Shown: positions 29,985 through 60,638 of the stretch, piece after piece
Position numbering within the stretch: the first letter of the stretch is position 1
Layout: each line of letters begins with the position of its first letter
Virus record (IMG/VR): IMGVR_UViG_3300010430_000017
Coordinates: 18,545-82,544 of that record
Source: a virus
Length of the DNA: 64,000 nt
Direction: 5' to 3' (one strand)
Translations under genes and position numbers: made by a program
The notes under the pieces: model-generated
Database searches by the model: none
What the model was told of the DNA's origin: nothing
What the model saw: the letters and a program-made list of their open reading frames with translations, nothing else

Positions 29985-30593
29985 TCATTTAAGTATTCCC
30001 CACTGTTTTGCCATTGCTTCCGCGATACCTCTAAAAAACATAGATCTTCTCTTACTTCTATCTTTCCCAGGACTCATATACCAAATTCTTTGTTGTTCTT
30101 TAAGTGGTAGAGACTGCATTTCAATGAATACATTATTTGTTCCAATAAGGTTCGGTAAATTATAATTCCATAATCCTGTTTTCTTCTTCTCAGGGTGTCC
30201 AAACATATATGGCTGAATATATTGGGAAGGCTTCTTAAGATTACTTTGTGTGGATAAAACACCCACAGGATTTTCGAAACAAACCCTGTTTCCTTTCTTC
30301 TTACATAGATTCCATAACTGTTCTGTCCATTCTATACTCTCCTGTCTCTTTTTTGTATTAGAATAATATCTATTCCCAGCAACACACAGGTATGTGCAGG
30401 GAGGGTGGCAGATAATTAAGTCATAGAACCCATCTTCTGTATTTTCTAAGATTTCCACTACATCGTGCATTATATGGTCGCCGTAAAGCGACTCACTTGG
30501 TAAAATATCACAACTTATGGCATAATGGCCTTCTCGGATAAATTCATCCCTTACTATCCCAGAATACTCACACCCAACAAAAACCCTCATCAA
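29985..30593 (-). CDS. small phage DNA cytosine-C5 methyltransferase-like protein
   Basis: V.VGCEYSG, SCDI, HPPCTYL (motif IV), ENP (motif VI), GIAEAMA.QW. Confidence 0.75.
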   Translation of the reverse strand: MMRVFVGCEYSGIVRDEFIREGHYAISCDILPSESLYGDHIMHDVVEILENTEDGFYDLIICHPPCTYLCVAGNRYYSNTKKRQESIEWTEQLWNLCKKKGNRVCFENPVGVLSTQSNLKKPSQYIQPYMFGHPEKKKTGLWNYNLPNLIGTNNVFIEMQSLPLKEQQRIWYMSPGKDRSKRRSMFFRGIAEAMAKQWGILK

Positions 30594-31147
30594 ATACTCC
30601 TAATATGAATAGGTGCAGTAACACCACTACAAAGACCAATAGAAGCTTCCAGGGCTTTTGTTATTGTACTTTCGGGATCAATAATTTCTTGGTTATTATA
30701 AATATGATGCAGAACACCATAAGCATAGGAACTCCCGGAACCAATTGCGTAGTACGGTTCTGTTGTCTCGACTACTTGGAAAGCTGGATCAATTAGAAAT
30801 AGTCTTCCATGAATTCCGACAAGATAATTATCGGAATGTTCTTCTACTCCGAGATCATTAGCTGAATAACCGCATTGCTTAAACAAATCCATGAGGTTAA
30901 TACTGAATGTTCTGCACATATAATTCTCAAGAGTTTGTTTCTCTGTATCAAATACAGGAAGCCAGTCATCAACATGCTTCATTAACTGACTTCCTCTGAT
31001 CATACCAGCGTATCCGACAAGCATTTGATCATTGAGTTTAATTACCTTGGGTCCAGTGAGTTTTCTTTCAAGATCCCCGAAAGTAGCACAGCTGTCTGAT
31101 CCGAAGTACGTCTTGTTCTTGTGTTTCAAAGCAATCACGCAGGTCAT
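30590..31147 (-). CDS. HslV/proteasome beta-type Ntn peptidase
   Basis: N-terminal MTCVI (Thr2 nucleophile), GSDS, conserved K, AIGSG..YA.G. Confidence 0.85.
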   Translation of the reverse strand: MTCVIALKHKNKTYFGSDSCATFGDLERKLTGPKVIKLNDQMLVGYAGMIRGSQLMKHVDDWLPVFDTEKQTLENYMCRTFSINLMDLFKQCGYSANDLGVEEHSDNYLVGIHGRLFLIDPAFQVVETTEPYYAIGSGSSYAYGVLHHIYNNQEIIDPESTITKALEASIGLCSGVTAPIHIRSI

Positions 31148-32946: not shown

Positions 32947-33195
32947 TCAGTTACCCTCCATAATGGATTCATATTCTTTGTAGAATTCAAGTTCTTTCTC
33001 TTTCTTTTCCTGGTACTCATTCGTGTAGTGCAACTTTACCATTCTCTTTACAACAGCTGCCTTAACTCCGTATTTCTCTTCTGCTGCTTTAGCTACTACA
33101 TTGAGATCATTCTTAGCTGTGTCAAGATCATCAAAAAGATTAGACAATTCACCTTCGATAAGTTCCTTAAGTTCTTGCTTCTGTTCTTCTGTCAT
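32947..33195 (-). CDS. T4 DsbA/GapR-like dsDNA-binding protein
   Basis: Helical; A.EKYGV...V.RMVKLHY...Y.E.....E....YE pattern. Confidence 0.6.
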   Translation of the reverse strand: MTEEQKQELKELIEGELSNLFDDLDTAKNDLNVVAKAAEEKYGVKAAVVKRMVKLHYTNEYQEKKEKELEFYKEYESIMEGN

Positions 33196-33618: not shown

Positions 33619-34221
33619 TTATTCCTCCTGTTTAAAATTACCATAATATAGTCGTTTTTTATCTTCTTTATTAAGATCTCGTAAAAACCACGCATATCTT
33701 GTATTATCAAGATAGGGATTATCTATTACATTAAAACCAGAAATAATTGTATATTGTCCTTTTAGATTGTTAGCGAATTTCTCTACAAAATCCACACCAT
33801 TAGTACAGACAATTATTCTTTTGTTGGGGATCAAAGATAAAATAAGATCTGGATCTATATGATTCTCAAAAGCAACTTCCTCGTATCCTTGGGGGAATTT
33901 TCCAGAGTTCAAATTTAAAGGTATCCCATCCCGAGAGAACAAACCACACATTGCCCAAAAATTGGGATGATAATACAGAAAGCCAATATATTTAGCTCTC
34001 TCATTCAAAGCAAAAGTTACACCTGAACCTCGACCACTAAGAATGAACACCGGTTTGTTCATTTCTGGTTTACAATTCACAATAAGCTTTTGGAATTCTG
34101 TTAGAACTACTTGCTCTGGTCTACTCGGTTTAAAATTCATACAGTTTTTACAATCGCACATGATCCCTCCTAAGTTAATGATTATACATCCTTGCAGCCC
34201 CTCAAGGATTAAGGTATCCAC
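33619..34221 (-). CDS. degenerate terminase-ATPase-like protein
   Basis: LTEFQ, SGRGSGVT (Walker A Lys to Val), DNPYL..RY...L..L...DK.RL.YG.F. Confidence 0.55.
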   Translation of the reverse strand: MDTLILEGLQGCIIINLGGIMCDCKNCMNFKPSRPEQVVLTEFQKLIVNCKPEMNKPVFILSGRGSGVTFALNERAKYIGFLYYHPNFWAMCGLFSRDGIPLNLNSGKFPQGYEEVAFENHIDPDLILSLIPNKRIIVCTNGVDFVEKFANNLKGQYTIISGFNVIDNPYLDNTRYAWFLRDLNKEDKKRLYYGNFKQEE

Positions 34222-34320: not shown

Positions 34321-36633
34321 TTATCCACATTTACTAAATCCGCACTCCTTGCAAATCAGACATCCACCCTCATTGACATATGATGCTAAGCCGCATTCAG
34401 GACAGATTTTTCCAACAGATACTTCAGGATCTTCAATAGGAAGATACTTAGAAAGAATCCTCTTAAGAATTCCAGCAGCATCTACCATGGAATACGTACT
34501 CTTATTTAACTGATCTATAATCTCCTCCACAGGAATCCCGTATCTAAGGGACATTGAGCATACTCTGCATAGCGAATCCCATAGACTATTACGCTCCTGG
34601 AATAGAACAGGATTAAAAGTGCCATCTCCATTATGCCCACCCTCTTTAGGTAATTTAACAAATACCTCTATTGGATTCCCTTCCTGATCAATACTTACAT
34701 TAATGTAAATTTTACTTCCTTTCCAAGAAACTCTATGCCTCACTGCTGTCTCTTCATCAAGAAGCTCTTTCTCGTATAGTTCCGGCATTACGCATTCAGC
34801 TACTTCTTCAGTATCCGTACTTGAAAGAACACCTTCCTTGCAACCATCTCGAAAAACAGTGACACCTTTGAGACCCTTGGACCAAGCGTACTTATAAATC
34901 TCTTGGATAGTCTCCTTTTTGGTATCATTCGAAAGATTAATAGTAGAACTGATCGAGGCATCAATATTCTTCTGTAAAGCGGCTTGCACATTAATCCTAT
35001 CTTTCCAATGAATCTCATTAGCTTCAACGTAGCCCATCTTGTTCTTTGCTTGCTCAAGAGTAAGTCCTTTGAATTCATCTAAGTTATCAAGCATATGCTG
35101 TGCAGCCGGGAGATGGATGAAGGAGTATTCTTTATTATCAATTCTATTCTTTCTTTTATAGGAAAACTTAAATATAGGTTCAATTCCTGACGAACAATTC
35201 CCAGAAACAATACTAATACTACCACAAGGACCAATTGTGTTGAGAGATGTATTAGCAAGACCATAATCTAAGATATTCTCTTTTAATGCACCTTCTATCT
35301 TATACCATGGGTTATCAACAAAATTATTCCTTGCTGCTGTTGAACTCATAGCCTCACAGCATTTACCTTGGACAGCAAGATCATTGGATGCAACTAATTG
35401 TGAATACATTATAGAATCAGTGATATCATTAGCAAGATCTATGGAATCTTCATCTCCGTAAGTAAAACCTAATTTTTGACATAGATCTCCAAACCCTGTT
35501 AACTCAACACCAATCCTTTTACCAAATTTATCCACTGATCTTTGCTCAGCTAATGGGTGCAAGTCCTCATTCATATCAGAAAACAAGTTCATCAAGCGTG
35601 TAGCTACTTCTGCGTCCTCTTCTAAGGAAACAATATCAAGTCTCCCATGCAAAAGATAAAAAGGGAGCACAAACGCGCCAAGCAGGCAGTTTGAATCTCC
35701 AGCCATGGGTTGTTCAGAACATGCATTGTATCCAAACGGCTTCAAAGATTTATCAATATAAGTCCCAAAAGTATTTTTCTGTACTGTTGTGATGTATGAA
35801 GTTCCTGGATCTCCACAAATCCAAGCTGCCTCCGACAATTGACTCAAAACATCTCTTGCTTTGATAGTTTTATACTCTTTAAATTTACCTCCTATTTCAA
35901 ACCACTCATCATAATCACCATCCCAGCAAGAGTTATATAATTCTTTATCAGCCTCTATATCAGGAAAACAAAACGTCCAGTCCTCATCATTCTCTACAGC
36001 AGTCATAAATGAGTCAGTAAGTTTTAATGTTATATTAGCATTATTAATGGCCGGCAGTTCTTTTGTAAAAACATCTTCTTCAAAAACTTTCTCTGGCTTT
36101 GCTTTACTCCAAATAAAATCAAGTGTATCTGGGTGCCGACAATCAAGAGAGATCAGCAATGCTCCACGTCTACCAAACTGGCAGATTGTTTTAGTTAACT
36201 CAGAAAAACTTGGCATAAAACTAACAGCGCCGGATGAAGTTCTTGCTGCATTCTCTACGGAATGTCCTTTTGGTCTTAGAATGGATATATCTGTACCAAC
36301 GCCTCCTCTATAAGAGAAGGTTCTCGCAATCTGTTTATGTGCTTCATATATCCCTTCAATACTGTCATGCCTGATAGGAACATAATAGCAGTTACTAAAG
36401 CTGCTGGTTGCGCCTGAATTACAGGCACTCAGAATACTCCCAGCGGGAATGAACTTACCACTTCTTAGAAGTTCTTTCTGATCCTTGTCCGTGATGTTAC
36501 AACAATCAATAACTCCTTCAATTACATCTTTGATATCTTCATGCCCATATTTATTCTTTGTGACCATGGCCACGAAATCTTCATGCTCTGCAATACTCGT
36601 CTCCAACAACTCCTTTGTAATAACCTCAGTCAA
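34321..36633 (-). CDS. nrdJ: class II (B12-dependent) ribonucleotide reductase with C-terminal TSCPD and Zn ribbon
   Basis: FSNCY, GGVG, RRGA, NACSEQ, CLLG, PCGSIS..SSGIEP, SIS.TIN, KGVTVFRDG, CPECG..C.ECG.SKC; no nrdB seen in the window. Confidence 0.9.
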   Translation of the reverse strand: MTEVITKELLETSIAEHEDFVAMVTKNKYGHEDIKDVIEGVIDCCNITDKDQKELLRSGKFIPAGSILSACNSGATSSFSNCYYVPIRHDSIEGIYEAHKQIARTFSYRGGVGTDISILRPKGHSVENAARTSSGAVSFMPSFSELTKTICQFGRRGALLISLDCRHPDTLDFIWSKAKPEKVFEEDVFTKELPAINNANITLKLTDSFMTAVENDEDWTFCFPDIEADKELYNSCWDGDYDEWFEIGGKFKEYKTIKARDVLSQLSEAAWICGDPGTSYITTVQKNTFGTYIDKSLKPFGYNACSEQPMAGDSNCLLGAFVLPFYLLHGRLDIVSLEEDAEVATRLMNLFSDMNEDLHPLAEQRSVDKFGKRIGVELTGFGDLCQKLGFTYGDEDSIDLANDITDSIMYSQLVASNDLAVQGKCCEAMSSTAARNNFVDNPWYKIEGALKENILDYGLANTSLNTIGPCGSISIVSGNCSSGIEPIFKFSYKRKNRIDNKEYSFIHLPAAQHMLDNLDEFKGLTLEQAKNKMGYVEANEIHWKDRINVQAALQKNIDASISSTINLSNDTKKETIQEIYKYAWSKGLKGVTVFRDGCKEGVLSSTDTEEVAECVMPELYEKELLDEETAVRHRVSWKGSKIYINVSIDQEGNPIEVFVKLPKEGGHNGDGTFNPVLFQERNSLWDSLCRVCSMSLRYGIPVEEIIDQLNKSTYSMVDAAGILKRILSKYLPIEDPEVSVGKICPECGLASYVNEGGCLICKECGFSKCG

Positions 36634-39520: not shown

Positions 39521-39670
39521 GGGTCAAGAGAGGAATTGAACCTCTAACATGTATACTGTACCAGCAATCTTTATAAATCCCGGTTAAATATAAAGATTAG
39601 TCTTAACGGTTTTCGATTCCTATTCACCTGGACCACCTACGCTGTGCCTTACCAATTCAGCCACTTGACC
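39521..39670 (-). ncRNA. tRNA-shaped RNA with a 73-nt insert replacing the anticodon loop
   Basis: Acceptor GGTCAAG/CTTGACC; D arm GCTGAATTGGTAAGGC; stem CAGCG/TGCTG; 16-nt variable region; T arm AGAGG-TTCAATT-CCTCT. Confidence 0.75.
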
Positions 39671-43205: not shown

Positions 43206-43380
43206 TTATTACTACTACTCTACACTAAAAAATACTACTTGTCAAGAACTTTATTACAAAAGATAAATAAAACTTCTTCTTTGAAAGAAGACAGCATTTA
43301 TACTACGTATTATTATTATAGTCAATAGAAAAATTAAAATAATTATTGATTTTATTTATATATTGTGGTATACTGTTTGC

Positions 43381-43938
43381 ATGAATAAAAAAAGAAAACA
43401 AGATTACCCCGAGTACGCACATTGGAGGGCGATGATTTATAGGTGCTATCCTTCGGATAATATCTCTACATCGTGTGAAAGAAAGGGGGTAGGTGTCTGT
43501 GACCGGTGGAGAGGGTGGGATGGGTTTTGGAATTTCTTAAAAGATCTTGGGGAGAAGCCATCAAAAAAATACAGGCTGAAAAGAAAAGACAAAAACAGTG
43601 ACTTTAGTAAGAGAAATTGCACTTGGAGTAAGAAAAAAACATACAAAGTAAAATCCAATGAGATCAAAACTAATGTTAAGACGCTCTTTTATAAGAACAA
43701 AGAGTACACTGTGAGAATGGTGTGCGAGAAATTTAATTTAAAAGCTTGTACTGTGTACTACAGAATAAAGGCAGGGTGGTTAGATAGCGATATAGTAGAA
43801 ACCCCAGTGAATGAGATACCAATTTCATTAAGGACAGAGGAGAACATGAAATATGGAAGATACTCCTATTTCTTAAAATTTGGTATCTATAAAAATAGTA
43901 AAAGTAACAATTTTGTAACTTTTACTCAAGATAATTGA
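43381..43938 (+). CDS. degenerate HNH-like endonuclease
   Basis: W.AM..RC, G.GVC.RW....NF..D.G.KP, R.D....F...NC.W; catalytic D/H appears eroded. Confidence 0.65.
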   Translation: MNKKRKQDYPEYAHWRAMIYRCYPSDNISTSCERKGVGVCDRWRGWDGFWNFLKDLGEKPSKKYRLKRKDKNSDFSKRNCTWSKKKTYKVKSNEIKTNVKTLFYKNKEYTVRMVCEKFNLKACTVYYRIKAGWLDSDIVETPVNEIPISLRTEENMKYGRYSYFLKFGIYKNSKSNNFVTFTQDN

Positions 43939-49475: not shown

Positions 49476-49826
49476 ATGGCAAGAGCTAAAGGTTCACAGA
49501 CCCCCGGATACAAAGCAGCTAAGAAAGTACAGGACTCGGAACCTAATTACATAGAGAAGATCCTGAAGTATTCTCCGAAAGCTATGGATATTCTTTTTTA
49601 TCATATTGATAATCCAAGTGAGAATATGAATCTTTCGTTTGGTGCTGCTAAGAAGGTACTTGAAGAACGGAATAGGCTATATAAAGAACTTAAGGATAAA
49701 CTTCCGAAGGATTATATTGTTGAGCCTTCTACTAAGAACAAGGAAATTAAAGGCACTAAGAAAGAAGATGGTAATAACTTGATTACCCTTGAGTACGTAC
49801 CTGACGATGAAGCTGCTGAAGGTTAG
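49476..49826 (+). CDS. terminase small subunit (putative)
   Basis: MARAKGS.. helical protein shortly upstream of TerL; AAGGAG RBS. Confidence 0.45.
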   Translation: MARAKGSQTPGYKAAKKVQDSEPNYIEKILKYSPKAMDILFYHIDNPSENMNLSFGAAKKVLEERNRLYKELKDKLPKDYIVEPSTKNKEIKGTKKEDGNNLITLEYVPDDEAAEG

Positions 49827-49829
49827 TTA

Positions 49830-50168
49830 ATGAAGTTTTCATATAAGAATTGTAAAAATCCTAAAACTTGCAGAGATTTTCTTGTTGTCTGTGAGAAATA
49901 TTCAGACGTATCAAAAGAAAGTATAGAGAGTATGGTTAATCCTGAGTATTTTTTCAAATGCCACAACAAAGAAGAAGTTGATGAAGTAAATATTTATGTT
50001 GTTTCTGAAAGAGATCTCCCGGATAGTATTATGGGGTGCAGATATTGTGGTGTAATCTTCAATGATGGCAAATATGATGGTTTTACTTTTAATTATGCTC
50101 AGTCAAGAGTAATTCATGACTGTTATAGTACTTATGCTATAGGTGATGGCGAGTACATGTTTAGTTAA
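49830..50168 (+). CDS. Cys-containing hypothetical protein
   Basis: 112-aa ORF. Confidence 0.55.
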   Translation: MKFSYKNCKNPKTCRDFLVVCEKYSDVSKESIESMVNPEYFFKCHNKEEVDEVNIYVVSERDLPDSIMGCRYCGVIFNDGKYDGFTFNYAQSRVIHDCYSTYAIGDGEYMFS

Positions 50169-50398
50169 AAAGATTTTCCTGTCTCTCTTTCATTTAATAC
50201 CTTATTATATAAGAGAGCGGGGAAAGTGAACGAAGGAGGAGGTCGTTACGATTCGATCTAAGATCTATCCCCACCAGAAAAATCTTTTGTTAGGATGGTG
50301 GGAATTTTTGGTATTTCTGATAGAGCTTTAAGGGCCTTGTGCAGAAGTGAGTATGAATATATCAAAGAATATAAGTCTTTCAGGATAGTGAGGTGAAT

Positions 50399-51919
50399 AT
50401 GTCATTAGGTCCTTGTTCGGAACGACAAGCACAAATTTTAAAGAATAATTCTGACGTGCTTCTAATGGGTGGTGGAGCCGGATCTGGCAAGAGTTATCTA
50501 CTACACCTTATAGCAGCTAATTATTTGGACTGACCTAACTACCGGGCAACTTTCATTCGTAGAACTACTCCTCAGTTAATGAAGCCTGGTAACTTGTGGG
50601 ACACAGGTAAAAAAGTATTTAGTCAGCTTGGTATGCATAATGGTGTAAACTACAATCCAAAATGGAAACAAGGTGATCAAAAGTTAGTTGTGTGGGGGCA
50701 TGGACCGGTAATAGAATACTCACATTGTCAACATATAAAGGATCTCGACAACTATCAAGGTTCACAGATGACAACTTTTTTGGTAGATGAGGGGACCCAG
50801 CTTGAATGGGAAATGATCTCATATTTGTTTTCAAGAATGAGATCAGACTCTAAGTATAAATCAAGAATGGTCATAAGTTGTAACCCGTCATACGATCACA
50901 TGCTCAGAAAAATGGTGGACTTTTATGTAGATGACGAGGGGTTTCCTATAGAAGATAAGTTAGGTATTGAAAGGTATTTCTATGTAATAAATGATGTCCC
51001 GGTTTTTGGTGACACATCAGAGGAACTTATAGAAAGATATCCTCTAATGGCTGAAGGGTTGGATGGGGACATTATCCCTCCAATGAGCTTTTCATTTATT
51101 GCCTCAAACGTATATCAAAACCCTATTTTATTGAAAAACAACCCTCGCTACCTAAGTGCATTGAAAGGTCTTGGTGAACTTGAAAGAAAAGTACTTCTTG
51201 ATGGATGCTGGAATGTCAAACCGGAAAGTGCTTCCTATTTCAAAAGAGAATGGTTACAGAAATGGGATAAGATCCCTCTTGGTAGTAAGTTCCGTGGATG
51301 GGACAAGGCGAATACCCCTGTTTCAAAAGACTCTGCTAATAAATATCCCGACTTTACTGCATGTACCGGGATGGTTAAGACAGCAGAAGGTGATATAGTG
51401 ATTATAGGGGACCATCATGAAGATAACAAAGATAAAGATGATGGGGTGTACGGTAGGTTTAGAGAGCTTCCAGGAAGAAGGAATCAGATTATGTTAAGAC
51501 AGGCACAATGGGACGGACCTGATTGTACCGTGGTCTTAGCGCAAGATCCGAACGGTAAGTTCGAGTTTGAGGAAAGTGTTAAATTTTTTAATAGTCACGG
51601 GTTCATAGTTAAAAAAGATCCAGCAATTGTATCCTCAAGTAAATTAACTAAATATAGTGCATTTAGTTCTGCTTGTGAAAACGGTACTGTGGGGATTGTA
51701 GAAAGTTCTTTCCACCCAGACACTCTTGAAGATTTTTATAAATGTCATGAAAGATTCACAGGTTTACGGAGTAGTCGTACTTACAAAGACGATATTCCTG
51801 ATAGCACAGCATCAACCTTTGCTGTAGCATCCCAATCACAACACATCCCAATAGTTTGTCGTAACCAGATACAATCAGATACAATATCAAGAAACATTAT
51901 AGAAAAGAGAAATCAATAA
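50399..51919 (+). CDS. terL: terminase large subunit with in-frame TGA at 50531-50533
   Basis: GAGGTG RBS; MSLGPCSERQ..GGGAGSGKS (Walker A)..NYLD*PNYRATFIRRT, in frame with the 50579 ORF, which holds Walker B LVDEGTQ, SCNP and nuclease motifs GWDKA and DDIPD. Confidence 0.9.
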
Positions 51920-51933
51920 TCAAGGGGGCAGTA

Positions 51934-52320
51934 TTGTTTAAAATATTTGAAGGTACTCAAGAGAGTACAAACGAGAATTATAAAACCATCAATTTTAAAT
52001 CTCTGAAGATGAAAGATGTCACAAAACTTTGTAAGATTCTCAACAAGCTTTACGAGGAAGGCTACAAAATTAAGGAAGAATTCTCACCAAGAGAATGTCC
52101 GAAAATTCCTCAACTGTTGAATCTCAAGTTCATTAAAGAAACCAAAACTCCAGAGAAGGAAATTTCTGTGGAGAAAGAAATTAAGACACTTAATTTCGAG
52201 GATCTTAAGACATTAGATGAAATGAAATCTTTCGCTGCATCAAATAATATAGAAATTCCAGAGGACATTACTCACTGGAGACAGGTAAAAAAATTCATCA
52301 AAGAGAATCTTTCTGAATAA
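51934..52320 (+). CDS. hypothetical protein with HeH/Rho-N-like C-terminus
   Basis: LDEMKSFA..NNIEI.....V.KFI. Confidence 0.5.
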   Translation: MFKIFEGTQESTNENYKTINFKSLKMKDVTKLCKILNKLYEEGYKIKEEFSPRECPKIPQLLNLKFIKETKTPEKEISVEKEIKTLNFEDLKTLDEMKSFAASNNIEIPEDITHWRQVKKFIKENLSE

Positions 52321-52342: not shown

Positions 52343-54016
52343 ATGACTTCATATAATAAAGAACTTGCGGATTCACTTAAGAAATTTGAAGAGAGGGGTG
52401 TTTCTCGGGATATTATTCTCACTGACAATGATATCCATAAATCTGAATCTTATAGGGGCGTTGCGCCATTAACTAACCTAAGAAGGGAAGTAGGGCAACC
52501 GCATGTTGTGTCATCTAATAGGTTCATCGACGATCAAAGGAAAACTGATCTCAAGATACCAACGAGGTGGTGTACATATGATAATATGTACGTAGATGAT
52601 TGCGTATATAATTCAGTTGATATCACTAATCTTTTAGTAATAACTGCCTTGTACGGAGGAAAATATGTTCCTGGACCTTCTAATAGTGAAGCAAGTAAAA
52701 TAGCCGCTGACTTCGGTAATTATAATCTCAGGAACCTCAGTTATGGTACGTATCTTGAGTTCCTACAAGACGCTGCCACTGATTTAAAAGACGGTTTTAG
52801 TATTCAGTACCCAGTGTACGAGAAAAGGAAATATGGTCCATATAAAGGCTCCTGGTGCTTAAGAAAACTATCACCGAGGGATCAGAAAAGCATTTATGGG
52901 TGGGTTTGGAATAAAGATCAAACGGAACTAATGGGTGTTGTTCAAAAGCCAAGAATAACACAATCCAGACAGTTCAAGAATGTGGGTTATAAAGACGGTC
53001 TTACTCTTTTAAGCAATGGTAAAGTTTATGAGTGCGACTATCCATACATGCCCTTGAAAGAGATCCTGCACTTTAAGTACAATAGTACTAATAATAACCC
53101 TCAAGGTGATTCCCCACTAAACCATTGTTATACTGCTTGGATGGAGAAAAGATTAATTGAGGAATATGAATGCATCGGGATTGGTAAGGATCTTGGGGGT
53201 ATCGTAGTACTGAGAGTCCCTTCTGAACTCATTTCTAAAGCTAACGACCCACAGAATTACCCGGATGCTGCTACTGAGTATCAGGCATTACAAGAAGATA
53301 CTGCTGACCTGCATGCTGGTAGAAACTCATTTATCATGCTTACCTCTGATTCATATCAAGATAGTAAGAAATACATGTACGACTTTGAACTAAAAGGTAT
53401 AGACGGCCAAGGAAAACAGTATCAGACAAGTGACATTATAGATCAGAAGAGAAAAAGCATTTATAATTGTTTTGGGACTGGCTTTCTTCTTTTGGGTCAA
53501 GACAGTGTAGGGAGTTATAATCTATCCTCAAATGCCACAAGTACTCATGGGTATTATGTAGAGAGAAATATTCTTCAGAAAATTAACGTCCTTAATAATC
53601 AATTACTACCGAGACTCCTTGGAATTAATAAAGTGTATCTTGACTACGAGGATATGCCTGTATTCCAACCTATTTCTCCTACCGAATCCAATAAAGATGA
53701 ATTAAGTAAGGTCGTTCAGAGAGTGGGTTCTGTTCTTAAACTAACACCAGAAGCCCTGACTGTTGTTTATGAGGAGATGGGTTGGCCCACTGATGGTATT
53801 GATGATCTTGATTTCACAAGTAAAGGTGAGAGCAGGTCAGGCGATGGAAAAGGCACTTCTGGAACAGGAGATTCTCAAGGAGGAGGAGGCGCTAATAGTA
53901 CTTCTAATATGGAAAACACAGATATGTCTAAGACATTGGTTTTTGAATCAGAGGATAATAACCAAATCACATTAATAAATACAGAGACTGGTGAGCCTAT
54001 CTTTATTGATAAATAA
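52343..54016 (+). CDS. portal protein
   Basis: Position after TerL; GFS...VY, L.PR.Q, NP.G.SPL..CY..W, GSY.LS...H. Confidence 0.9.
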   Translation: MTSYNKELADSLKKFEERGVSRDIILTDNDIHKSESYRGVAPLTNLRREVGQPHVVSSNRFIDDQRKTDLKIPTRWCTYDNMYVDDCVYNSVDITNLLVITALYGGKYVPGPSNSEASKIAADFGNYNLRNLSYGTYLEFLQDAATDLKDGFSIQYPVYEKRKYGPYKGSWCLRKLSPRDQKSIYGWVWNKDQTELMGVVQKPRITQSRQFKNVGYKDGLTLLSNGKVYECDYPYMPLKEILHFKYNSTNNNPQGDSPLNHCYTAWMEKRLIEEYECIGIGKDLGGIVVLRVPSELISKANDPQNYPDAATEYQALQEDTADLHAGRNSFIMLTSDSYQDSKKYMYDFELKGIDGQGKQYQTSDIIDQKRKSIYNCFGTGFLLLGQDSVGSYNLSSNATSTHGYYVERNILQKINVLNNQLLPRLLGINKVYLDYEDMPVFQPISPTESNKDELSKVVQRVGSVLKLTPEALTVVYEEMGWPTDGIDDLDFTSKGESRSGDGKGTSGTGDSQGGGGANSTSNMENTDMSKTLVFESEDNNQITLINTETGEPIFIDK

Positions 54017-60212: not shown

Positions 60213-60638
60213 ATGAGTAACAACCTTAAGCAATTCTTAGCTGATCTTGAAAAAGAGACTGAGCAAGTAAAGACTGAGCTAAATCAGGAGATTAAAGGCA
60301 CTGCTGAAGCTGTACAAGGCTCTTTACTCTCTCCTAAAGGTCTTGGTGGTACTCCTAAACAAACAGGGAACTTAAGGGCTAATTGGATAGTTACAGTGGA
60401 CTCAATGTACTCCGGTCTGGTTGGTAGTAAAGAAAATGTGGATACATCGACAAGAGATAGTAACTGGAGTAGTTTCCTGAATCTACAAGATTTGTATAGC
60501 AAGTCCAACATCTATTGGAATAATAACGTCGAATACGGTGAAGCAGTTAACTATGGAACTCCAACTATAGCTGCTCAGAATTTTAGAGAAACTGCAATTC
60601 AAGCTGGTGAAGTATGGATCAGGGGGAATAAGAAATGA
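60213..60638 (+). CDS. tail completion protein (HK97 gp10-like)
   Basis: TP..TG.LRANW.V, NNVEY...NYG. Confidence 0.75.
   Translation: MSNNLKQFLADLEKETEQVKTELNQEIKGTAEAVQGSLLSPKGLGGTPKQTGNLRANWIVTVDSMYSGLVGSKENVDTSTRDSNWSSFLNLQDLYSKSNIYWNNNVEYGEAVNYGTPTIAAQNFRETAIQAGEVWIRGNKK

Follow-up and report, generated by a model that had tools for sequence, protein, structure and literature searches.

A lone, lineage-specific TGA codon interrupts the only large terminase gene found in an 82,544-bp phage genome

The IMG/VR virus record IMGVR_UViG_3300010430_000017, a single contig of 82,544 bp, carries an in-frame TGA at codon 45 of its large terminase gene (terL), shortly after the codons for the P-loop. 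We analyzed 64,000 nucleotides of this record (genome positions 18545–82544), hereafter called the window, whose numbering is used throughout unless genome positions are named. The TGA is real in the genome, it is the only one of its kind there, and it is specific to this lineage. Probably, if far from assuredly, it arose through a single-base change from TGT to TGA, and the phage survives through leaky decoding of UGA. The original prediction, made from the sequence of the window, had proposed programmed readthrough that limits or times packaging. This proposal finds no support: the 73 related loci are free of stops at this position, various residues occupy the column, and the downstream RNA structure is not clearly beyond chance.

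A single TGA interrupts an otherwise intact terL

The whole terL frame comprises 506 codons on the plus strand, and the TGA at codon 45 (50531–50533) is its sole interruption before the TAA at 51917–51919. Ribosome-binding site, start codon and Walker A motif were all located ahead of the stop, as had been claimed. A Shine-Dalgarno-like GAGGTG, read off the sequence at 50390–50395, lies upstream of the ATG at 50399–50401, and codons 1–44 (50399–50530) encode the N-terminus, a beta-strand, the P-loop and the following helix, with the Walker A sequence GGAGSGKS at codons 25–32 (50471–50494). Translation from this ATG yields MSLGPC..., an N-terminus identical to that of homologue P0005. The stop is followed by a C, so that TGA-C spans 50531–50534. 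Beyond it, the remaining gene (50534–51919) stays in the same frame through the ATPase core and the nuclease domain up to the TAA, confirming that the frame runs on without a break into the rest of TerL. Under translation table 11, the longest open reading frame (ORF) begins at the ATG at 50579 and encodes 446 amino acids. It starts past the Walker A codons and hence lacks the P-loop, as the original prediction had stated, and it also lacks R54 and R55. In our terminase alignment (A1), R54 is invariant and R55 is present in at least 90% of rows.

With an X placed at the stop, the read-through product matches the Pfam family Terminase_6N over residues 23–287, across the stop and including the Walker A motif (E = 3.9e-13), and Terminase_6C over residues 300–470 with E = 1.9e-4, just under the family cut-off. 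It thus combines an N-terminal ATPase domain bearing Walker A with a C-terminal RNaseH-like nuclease domain, the make-up of a large terminase. In tblastn searches, residues 4–487 align across the stop as a single piece with TerL of the rV5/FV3 type at 43.5% identity; matches were obtained in 1,320 phage records, 1,207 of them with at least 80% coverage. A profile built on A1 matched the complete genome at one place only (genome positions 68946–70457, E = 5e-238), with one TGA inside. This TGA is accordingly the sole stop within the sole TerL profile match of the 82,544-bp genome, and no second terminase was found by this profile. ORF 33619–34221 (minus strand) was matched neither by the TerL profile at E ≤ 1 nor by any Pfam family at 1e-3.

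The codons ahead of the stop are conserved to a similar degree as those behind it. Over the first 44 codons, 26/44, 25/43 and 30/44 residues are identical in the nearest homologues, compared with 55–59% for the rest of the protein, so that terL shows no sign of decay. No second defect was seen in terL, nor in the neighboring portal gene downstream (52343–54016) and the tail genes beyond it, which give full-length family matches. Column 45 should lie between the post-P-loop helix and the strand that carries the conserved Arg-Arg pair. A phmmer search returned no solved structure, and the profile gave only weak matches to phi29 gp16 (E = 0.08–0.23), which tentatively suggest that column 45 follows the P-loop helix.

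The stop recurs in separately assembled contigs

The ends of the record share a repeat of ~123 bases, and the genome is listed with direct terminal repeats and 100% completeness. Two public sequencing runs contain the stretch (X1 and X2), both of them marine-sediment metagenomes from 2017 that derive from two samples and two studies. Their Logan contigs measure 81,965 bp at a mean depth of 40.8 and 47,061 bp at 10.1. When window positions 49800–52300 were compared with both contigs, not a single letter differed, and neither a gap nor a joint was found. In a collection of 15 billion proteins, the 446- and the 44-amino-acid pieces each come from five contigs, the longest of 82,562 bp, and sources for the larger piece comprise JGI/IMG, Logan and ENA.

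The original prediction had named a sequencing error as the null explanation. A random error is unlikely, given that the assemblies of both runs agree with the window and that the pieces come from five contigs. We regard it as highly improbable that the real codon is TGT, TGC or TGG and that sequencing or assembly produced the TGA. The record is a metagenome assembly that may derive from these very runs, in which case a systematic error could repeat in both. Against this, the runs were assembled separately at depths of 40.8 and 10.1 and agree over 2.5 kb, the split ORFs each come from five contigs of three sources, and the site is not a homopolymer. A search of 5.8 billion proteins likewise revealed no uninterrupted near-identical TerL among its 96 matches, of which the best after the self-match is 58% identical, and the only small ORF found to resemble the 44-residue piece is the one of this genome itself.

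Relatives carry mostly aspartate and no stop at the interrupted column

Two checks proposed along with the original prediction concerned the residue at this column in TerL homologues and the conservation of the TGA, and both were run. Sixteen homologues were fetched, of which 14 cover column 45 (P0007 and P0058 begin past it). The six nearest, P0003, P0004, P0005, P0006, P0008 and P0009, at 48–58% identity, have Cys at this position, and the other eight have Asp. At the DNA level, 82 loci were compared (80 from IMG/VR, plus FV3 and Barba21A), 73 of which cover the column. Asp is by far the most frequent residue (57 loci), followed by His (6), Cys (4), Leu (3), Val and Tyr (1 each), with a gap in one locus. 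All four Cys loci use TGT, from which the TGA differs by one transversion. The TGA itself is not conserved: a stop occurs at the column in 0 of the 73 loci, the nearest relative being only 58% identical. The alignment has one residue per codon at the stop, meaning that nothing has been inserted there. Collectively, these alignments indicate that the column is tolerant and variable, mostly occupied by Asp and part of no redox motif.

No closer relatives turned up when viral and metagenome contigs were scanned for exact patterns, with the proviso that this genome's own records may have been hidden from these scans, and the protein search left the range from 58% to 100% identity empty. In bacterial assemblies, the relatives do not exceed 42% identity and fall in bins of many phyla, giving no clue to the host.

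The lack of any stop among the 73 loci is what would be expected of a recent accident, and hence bears on the possibility that the TGA simply inactivates terL. The genome would then be a non-viable or helper-dependent variant, perhaps a mutant of recent origin whose copies multiplied through intracellular replication, perhaps a genome rescued by a co-infecting wild type that is unseen in the contigs. Rare variants are dropped from contigs, and one relative, L038, harbors a single in-frame TAA in the post-P-loop helix, a few codons ahead of the column, so isolated stops do occur in assembled TerL genes. We nevertheless consider a dead allele unlikely. The TGA is the consensus at depths of ~41 and ~10 with no other letter, no uninterrupted copy is on record among the 96 protein matches, terL has no second defect, and the portal and tail genes are full-length. 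Moreover, a genome unable to package its DNA would not be expected to prevail in a population.

The genome uses the standard code

Codon usage was analyzed in a set of ORFs obtained by longest-ORF tiling, which gave 128 ORFs; seven lying against the strand of both neighbors were dropped, leaving 121. These end in TAA (86), TGA (21) or TAG (14), and 12 of the 21 TGA stops sit in 4-nt NTGA overlaps with the start of the next gene, a usual form of coupling. TGG occurs 387 times in 24,188 codons, compared with one in-frame TGA. The polA-like ORF does terminate with TGA, as the original prediction had pointed out in arguing that UGA is not reassigned genome-wide, and this argument is borne out. Its remark that a single late gene ends in TGA needs correction, since two such ORFs of the late block were found within the window (43363–43938 and 60213–60638). 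A screen for paired long open stretches split by one stop returned only terL on a coding strand. The one other coding-strand candidate for a TGA-split gene, at 32949 (minus strand), was rejected, as it consists of two small genes whose stop and start share an ordinary ATGA. With TGA ending 21 of 121 ORFs, a single in-frame TGA and no other split gene, reassignment of TGA as a sense codon was rejected, and we conclude that the genome uses the standard code.

No apparatus for recoding was detected. The standard ARAGORN scan found 0 tRNAs in the window and in the whole genome, leaving no tRNA with a UCA anticodon, for which a search of the rest of the genome had been proposed; RF-1 domains and class Ib (Trp/Tyr) synthetases (tRNA-synt_1b) gave 0 matches in the genome. 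A tRNA-shaped gene at 39521–39670 (minus strand) has good acceptor and T arms, with ~73 extra bases at the position of the anticodon loop. When introns were allowed, ARAGORN called it Phe(aaa) with a 64-nt intron, a call that we distrust. As a UGA suppressor it was rejected: the insert contains no TCA, no convincing anticodon loop is present and its fold is ordinary against shuffles (z = −0.47). No link was found between this gene and the terL stop.

These results also bear on whether terL marks an incipient late-gene recoding of TGA, served by an unrecognized suppressor of host or phage, as a first step on the path taken by gut phages. The relevant reports describe a crAss-like genome that is just beginning to gather recoded stops in TerL (Yutin et al., PMC7886860), low-GC phages that recode late genes with suppressors that may evade detection (Borges et al., bioRxiv 10.1101/2021.08.26.457843), and tRNA-Trp variants with 4-bp anticodon stems that read UGA (PMC13092985). 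The genome analyzed here resembles the crAss-like, Lak, Jade and Agate phages in its low GC content (36.7%), in a stop inside the late gene terL and in that suppressors are sometimes undetectable, and it has the odd tRNA-shaped gene. Unlike here, the gut phages recode many stops across their late genes and usually encode suppressor tRNAs, release factors or synthetases for the purpose (PMC7886860; bioRxiv 10.1101/2021.08.26.457843). This genome has one in-frame TGA in ~24,000 codons, and TGA terminates 21 ORFs, late ones included. No tRNA was found by the standard scan, the tRNA-shaped RNA lacks TCA as well as a convincing anticodon loop, and neither release-factor nor Trp/Tyr-type synthetase genes were found. 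Incipient recoding is therefore very improbable in our view. In the literature search, an in-frame TerL stop with readthrough came up in the crAss-like study only; further TerL genes with single stops may be listed in its Supplementary Data 1 (PMC7886860) and in Table S2 of Borges et al.

A marginally unusual hairpin follows the stop

The original prediction had noted only a weak CTAC..GTAG hairpin behind the stop. The fold is in fact an imperfect hairpin of ~18 bp at 50540–50591 (plus strand), 6 nt past the TGA, with stems of 8 and 6 bp, a 4-bp tip and a 7-nt apical loop without G. Its significance depends on the yardstick. A 63-nt frame starting at the stop folds with −15.3 kcal/mol (z = −2.69), a value reached by 3 of 200 shuffles, whereas a 96-nt frame yields z = −0.88 with 38 of 200 shuffles as good, which speaks against a designed site. 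Among 1,856 frames that begin at plus-strand TGA triplets of the genome, 4.7% fold as well, as do 4.1% of 32,994 natural windows of the genome and 8.0% of the 8,323 GC-matched ones. The equivalent segments of relatives reach the same energy in 22 of 84 cases and an equally low z in one of 84, and the four Cys-bearing relatives have no comparable hairpin (z between −0.90 and +1.25). The downstream structure is thus only marginally unusual.

A selenocysteine insertion sequence (SECIS) had already been considered doubtful, rightly so. Rfam gave no SECIS match at the site at E ≤ 10, the sole match being the irrelevant Tombus_3_III upstream (50324–50378), and no Rfam family reached its gathering score within the window. 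A scan for a simple hairpin obeying the rule for loop size and spacing (reportedly a loop of 3–14 nt, 16–37 nt from the UGA) found none.

Position and structure of the stop nevertheless invite the explanation that the UGA is kept on purpose. Selenocysteine or Cys could be inserted via host SelB and a divergent, SECIS-like hairpin at 50540–50591, or the hairpin could stimulate readthrough by Trp and thereby keep TerL scarce or late. By the criteria of PMC1088965, selenoprotein genes have a TGA at a column where two or more homologues, and the majority overall, carry Cys, a stem-loop just downstream with a small, G-bearing apical loop, and a TGA in a second sequence, a single sequence being termed a "candidate" owing to possible error. 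The pairing of the TGA with Cys in the six nearest proteins is the classic signature of selenocysteine and Cys in that study (PMC1088965), and the hairpin 6 nt past the stop, at z = −2.69 with 3 of 200 shuffles as good, points in the same direction, as do its rarity among relatives (equally low z in one of 84 segments) and its absence from the four Cys-bearing ones. These are the features that terL shares with bacterial selenoprotein genes, namely a UGA opposite the Cys of the nearest homologues and a hairpin shortly downstream.

terL also differs from such genes. Cys occupies the column in only 4 of the 73 loci compared with 57 for Asp, the column belongs to no redox motif, and the second Cys of the CxxxxC present in P0003–P0005 is Ala in this TerL. 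The 7-nt loop contains no G, no simple hairpin fits the rule for loop and spacing, Rfam is silent at E ≤ 10, and by the measures of the 96-nt frame, of the GC-matched windows and of the folding energy in relatives the structure is unexceptional. The TGA occurs in no second sequence (0 of 73 loci), which makes terL at most a single-sequence candidate by the standards of PMC1088965. Judged by their titles, none of the matches listed in a literature search reports a phage selenoprotein. Selenocysteine or SelB-mediated Cys at codon 45 therefore appears unlikely, and a UGA maintained by design, through whichever of these routes, is a doubtful prospect overall.

Leaky decoding of UGA as the favored route to full-length TerL

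Judged from the gene itself, in-frame decoding of the UGA appears to be the only visible route to an active TerL. No in-frame ATG, GTG or TTG lies between the TGA and the ATG at 50579, no Shine-Dalgarno sequence precedes the latter, and the conserved R54 and R55 fall into this gap; a two-piece enzyme or reinitiation is thus implausible and was rejected. Rejected likewise was a +4 hop via GAC-T-GAC, the only hop between matched codons, which lands out of frame in a frame that ends after 14 codons. Translational bypass or stop-hopping was discarded because no extra bases are present, and the ORFs on either side match no Pfam or PHROG family. No homing-endonuclease gene lies beside terL.

Given a single-copy essential gene, a consensus stop in two assemblies and an intact remainder, we infer that some full-length TerL is produced by near-cognate decoding. 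A lineage-specific substitution would have changed a Cys codon TGT to TGA in an otherwise intact terL. Most ribosomes would then terminate at codon 45 and release a useless peptide of 44 residues, while a near-cognate host tRNA-Trp, possibly also tRNA-Cys, most likely inserts a residue at the weak UGA-C, with a minority of full-length enzyme as the outcome. As relatives carry Asp, Cys, His, Leu, Tyr or Val at this column, any inserted residue should be tolerated. UGA-C is a weak stop, as Poole and co-workers reportedly described and as the prfB site illustrates, and among the stop signals of E. coli it is the weakest; terminase is required in small amounts. Leakage at UGA is a familiar phenomenon that varies strongly between hosts. 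Measured with the same reporter, readthrough amounts to 12% in E. coli MG1655 compared with 0.08% in P. putida and 0.04% in P. aeruginosa, a leakage credited to tRNA-Trp (PMC9481147); bacterial tRNA-Trp variants with 4-bp anticodon stems likewise read UGA (PMC13092985).

Several points weigh against leaky decoding. In hosts resembling Pseudomonas, readthrough of 0.04–0.08% might be too low to sustain the phage. Both public runs are flagged as possible sources of the record, perhaps from one campaign, and may not be independent; as possibly the record's own source samples, they provide no independent proof that the allele has spread, and contigs conceal minor alleles. A designed signal would account for the pairing of Cys with TGA and for a hairpin spaced as at recoding sites just as well as chance would. 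That readthrough occurs, that it suffices and that it is tolerated rather than designed are all points that we infer.

The Q-beta coat/A1 readthrough protein is a natural example of a leaky opal codon. There, terminated and extended products are reportedly both used and the stop is conserved, whereas here the 44-residue fragment has no plausible use and the stop is unshared. The likeness to leaky opal codons would consist in a single UGA under the standard code, decoded by near-cognate tRNA-Trp with no dedicated tRNA, and in a product that is needed for infectivity and arises only from occasional readthrough, at a level that depends on the host (PMC9481147).

Should the allele prove viable, an opal codon in the sole terminase gene is something a tailed phage can live with, and the case would inform on the minimal need for TerL and on the leakiness of UGA in a marine host. 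It would also represent a natural starting point for late-gene stop-codon recoding of the kind described in gut phages. If, instead, the UGA were kept on purpose, the supply of terminase would be tied to the translational state of the host, and the stop could mark a first step to late-gene TGA recoding outside the gut phages. For now the case amounts to one unconserved stop, of value chiefly because it is well documented and lends itself to testing.

Interruptions near the P-loop in related TerL genes

Within this clade, interruptions tend to strike the first 25–45 codons of TerL, which form a hot spot. In two IMG/VR loci with TerL ~51–54% identical, L003 (140–486) and L004 (2388–2560), five extra bases beginning with TGA precede the P-loop; they lie between the codons for ...FIGG and those for ACGGGKS and place the P-loop in another frame. 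Directly upstream in L004, a 290-amino-acid ORF (1522–2394) contains HNH_3 and NUMOD4 domains. L052 holds an Rfam group I intron at 2194–2509 (64.6 bits, E = 1.4e-14) between TerL residues 26 and 27, and L053 displays the same tblastn pattern. In L042 (1433–2500; L043 is alike), an in-frame insert of 1,068 bases with a LAGLIDADG_3 domain lies between residues 31 and 32 and constitutes an intein in the P-loop, which P0006, P0010 and P0012 seem to share.

Cultured, viable phages are affected as well. In Rheinheimera phage Barba21A (L002, 849–1253), the annotated TerL of 454 amino acids begins past the P-loop, and its true N-terminus (...EAEILVIGGG) corresponds to gp096 (849–992), a 47-amino-acid protein annotated on its own. 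About 230 bases lie between gp096 and the codons for AAGSGKS, immediately ahead of which stands an in-frame TAA. Matches were obtained in 112–115 Barba records. This interruption looks like a small intron, and the gap gave no Rfam match at E ≤ 0.1. In L038 (1–60), the lone in-frame TAA in the post-P-loop helix replaces a Leu (TTA) of its relatives, and the contig begins 20 bases upstream.

The terL studied here shares with L003/L004, L052, L042 and the Barba phages the gene, the affected region of the N-terminal 25–45 codons and the consequence that gene callers return a TerL without P-loop. It differs in that no base has been added, each residue has one codon and no endonuclease gene flanks the site. 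Interruptions in these relatives show that calling a TerL without its P-loop often does not mean that the gene is dead. Such calls, as the 446-amino-acid "terminase" here and those caused by introns, inteins and short inserts in several relatives, distort TerL-based phylogenies and completeness checks.

Two further genes of the window, both on the minus strand, were identified in passing. ORF 30590–31147 (185 amino acids) has a Proteasome-subunit (HslV-like) Pfam match with E = 3e-11, and ORF 34321–36633 (770 amino acids) is a ribonucleotide reductase with a C-terminal TSCPD domain.

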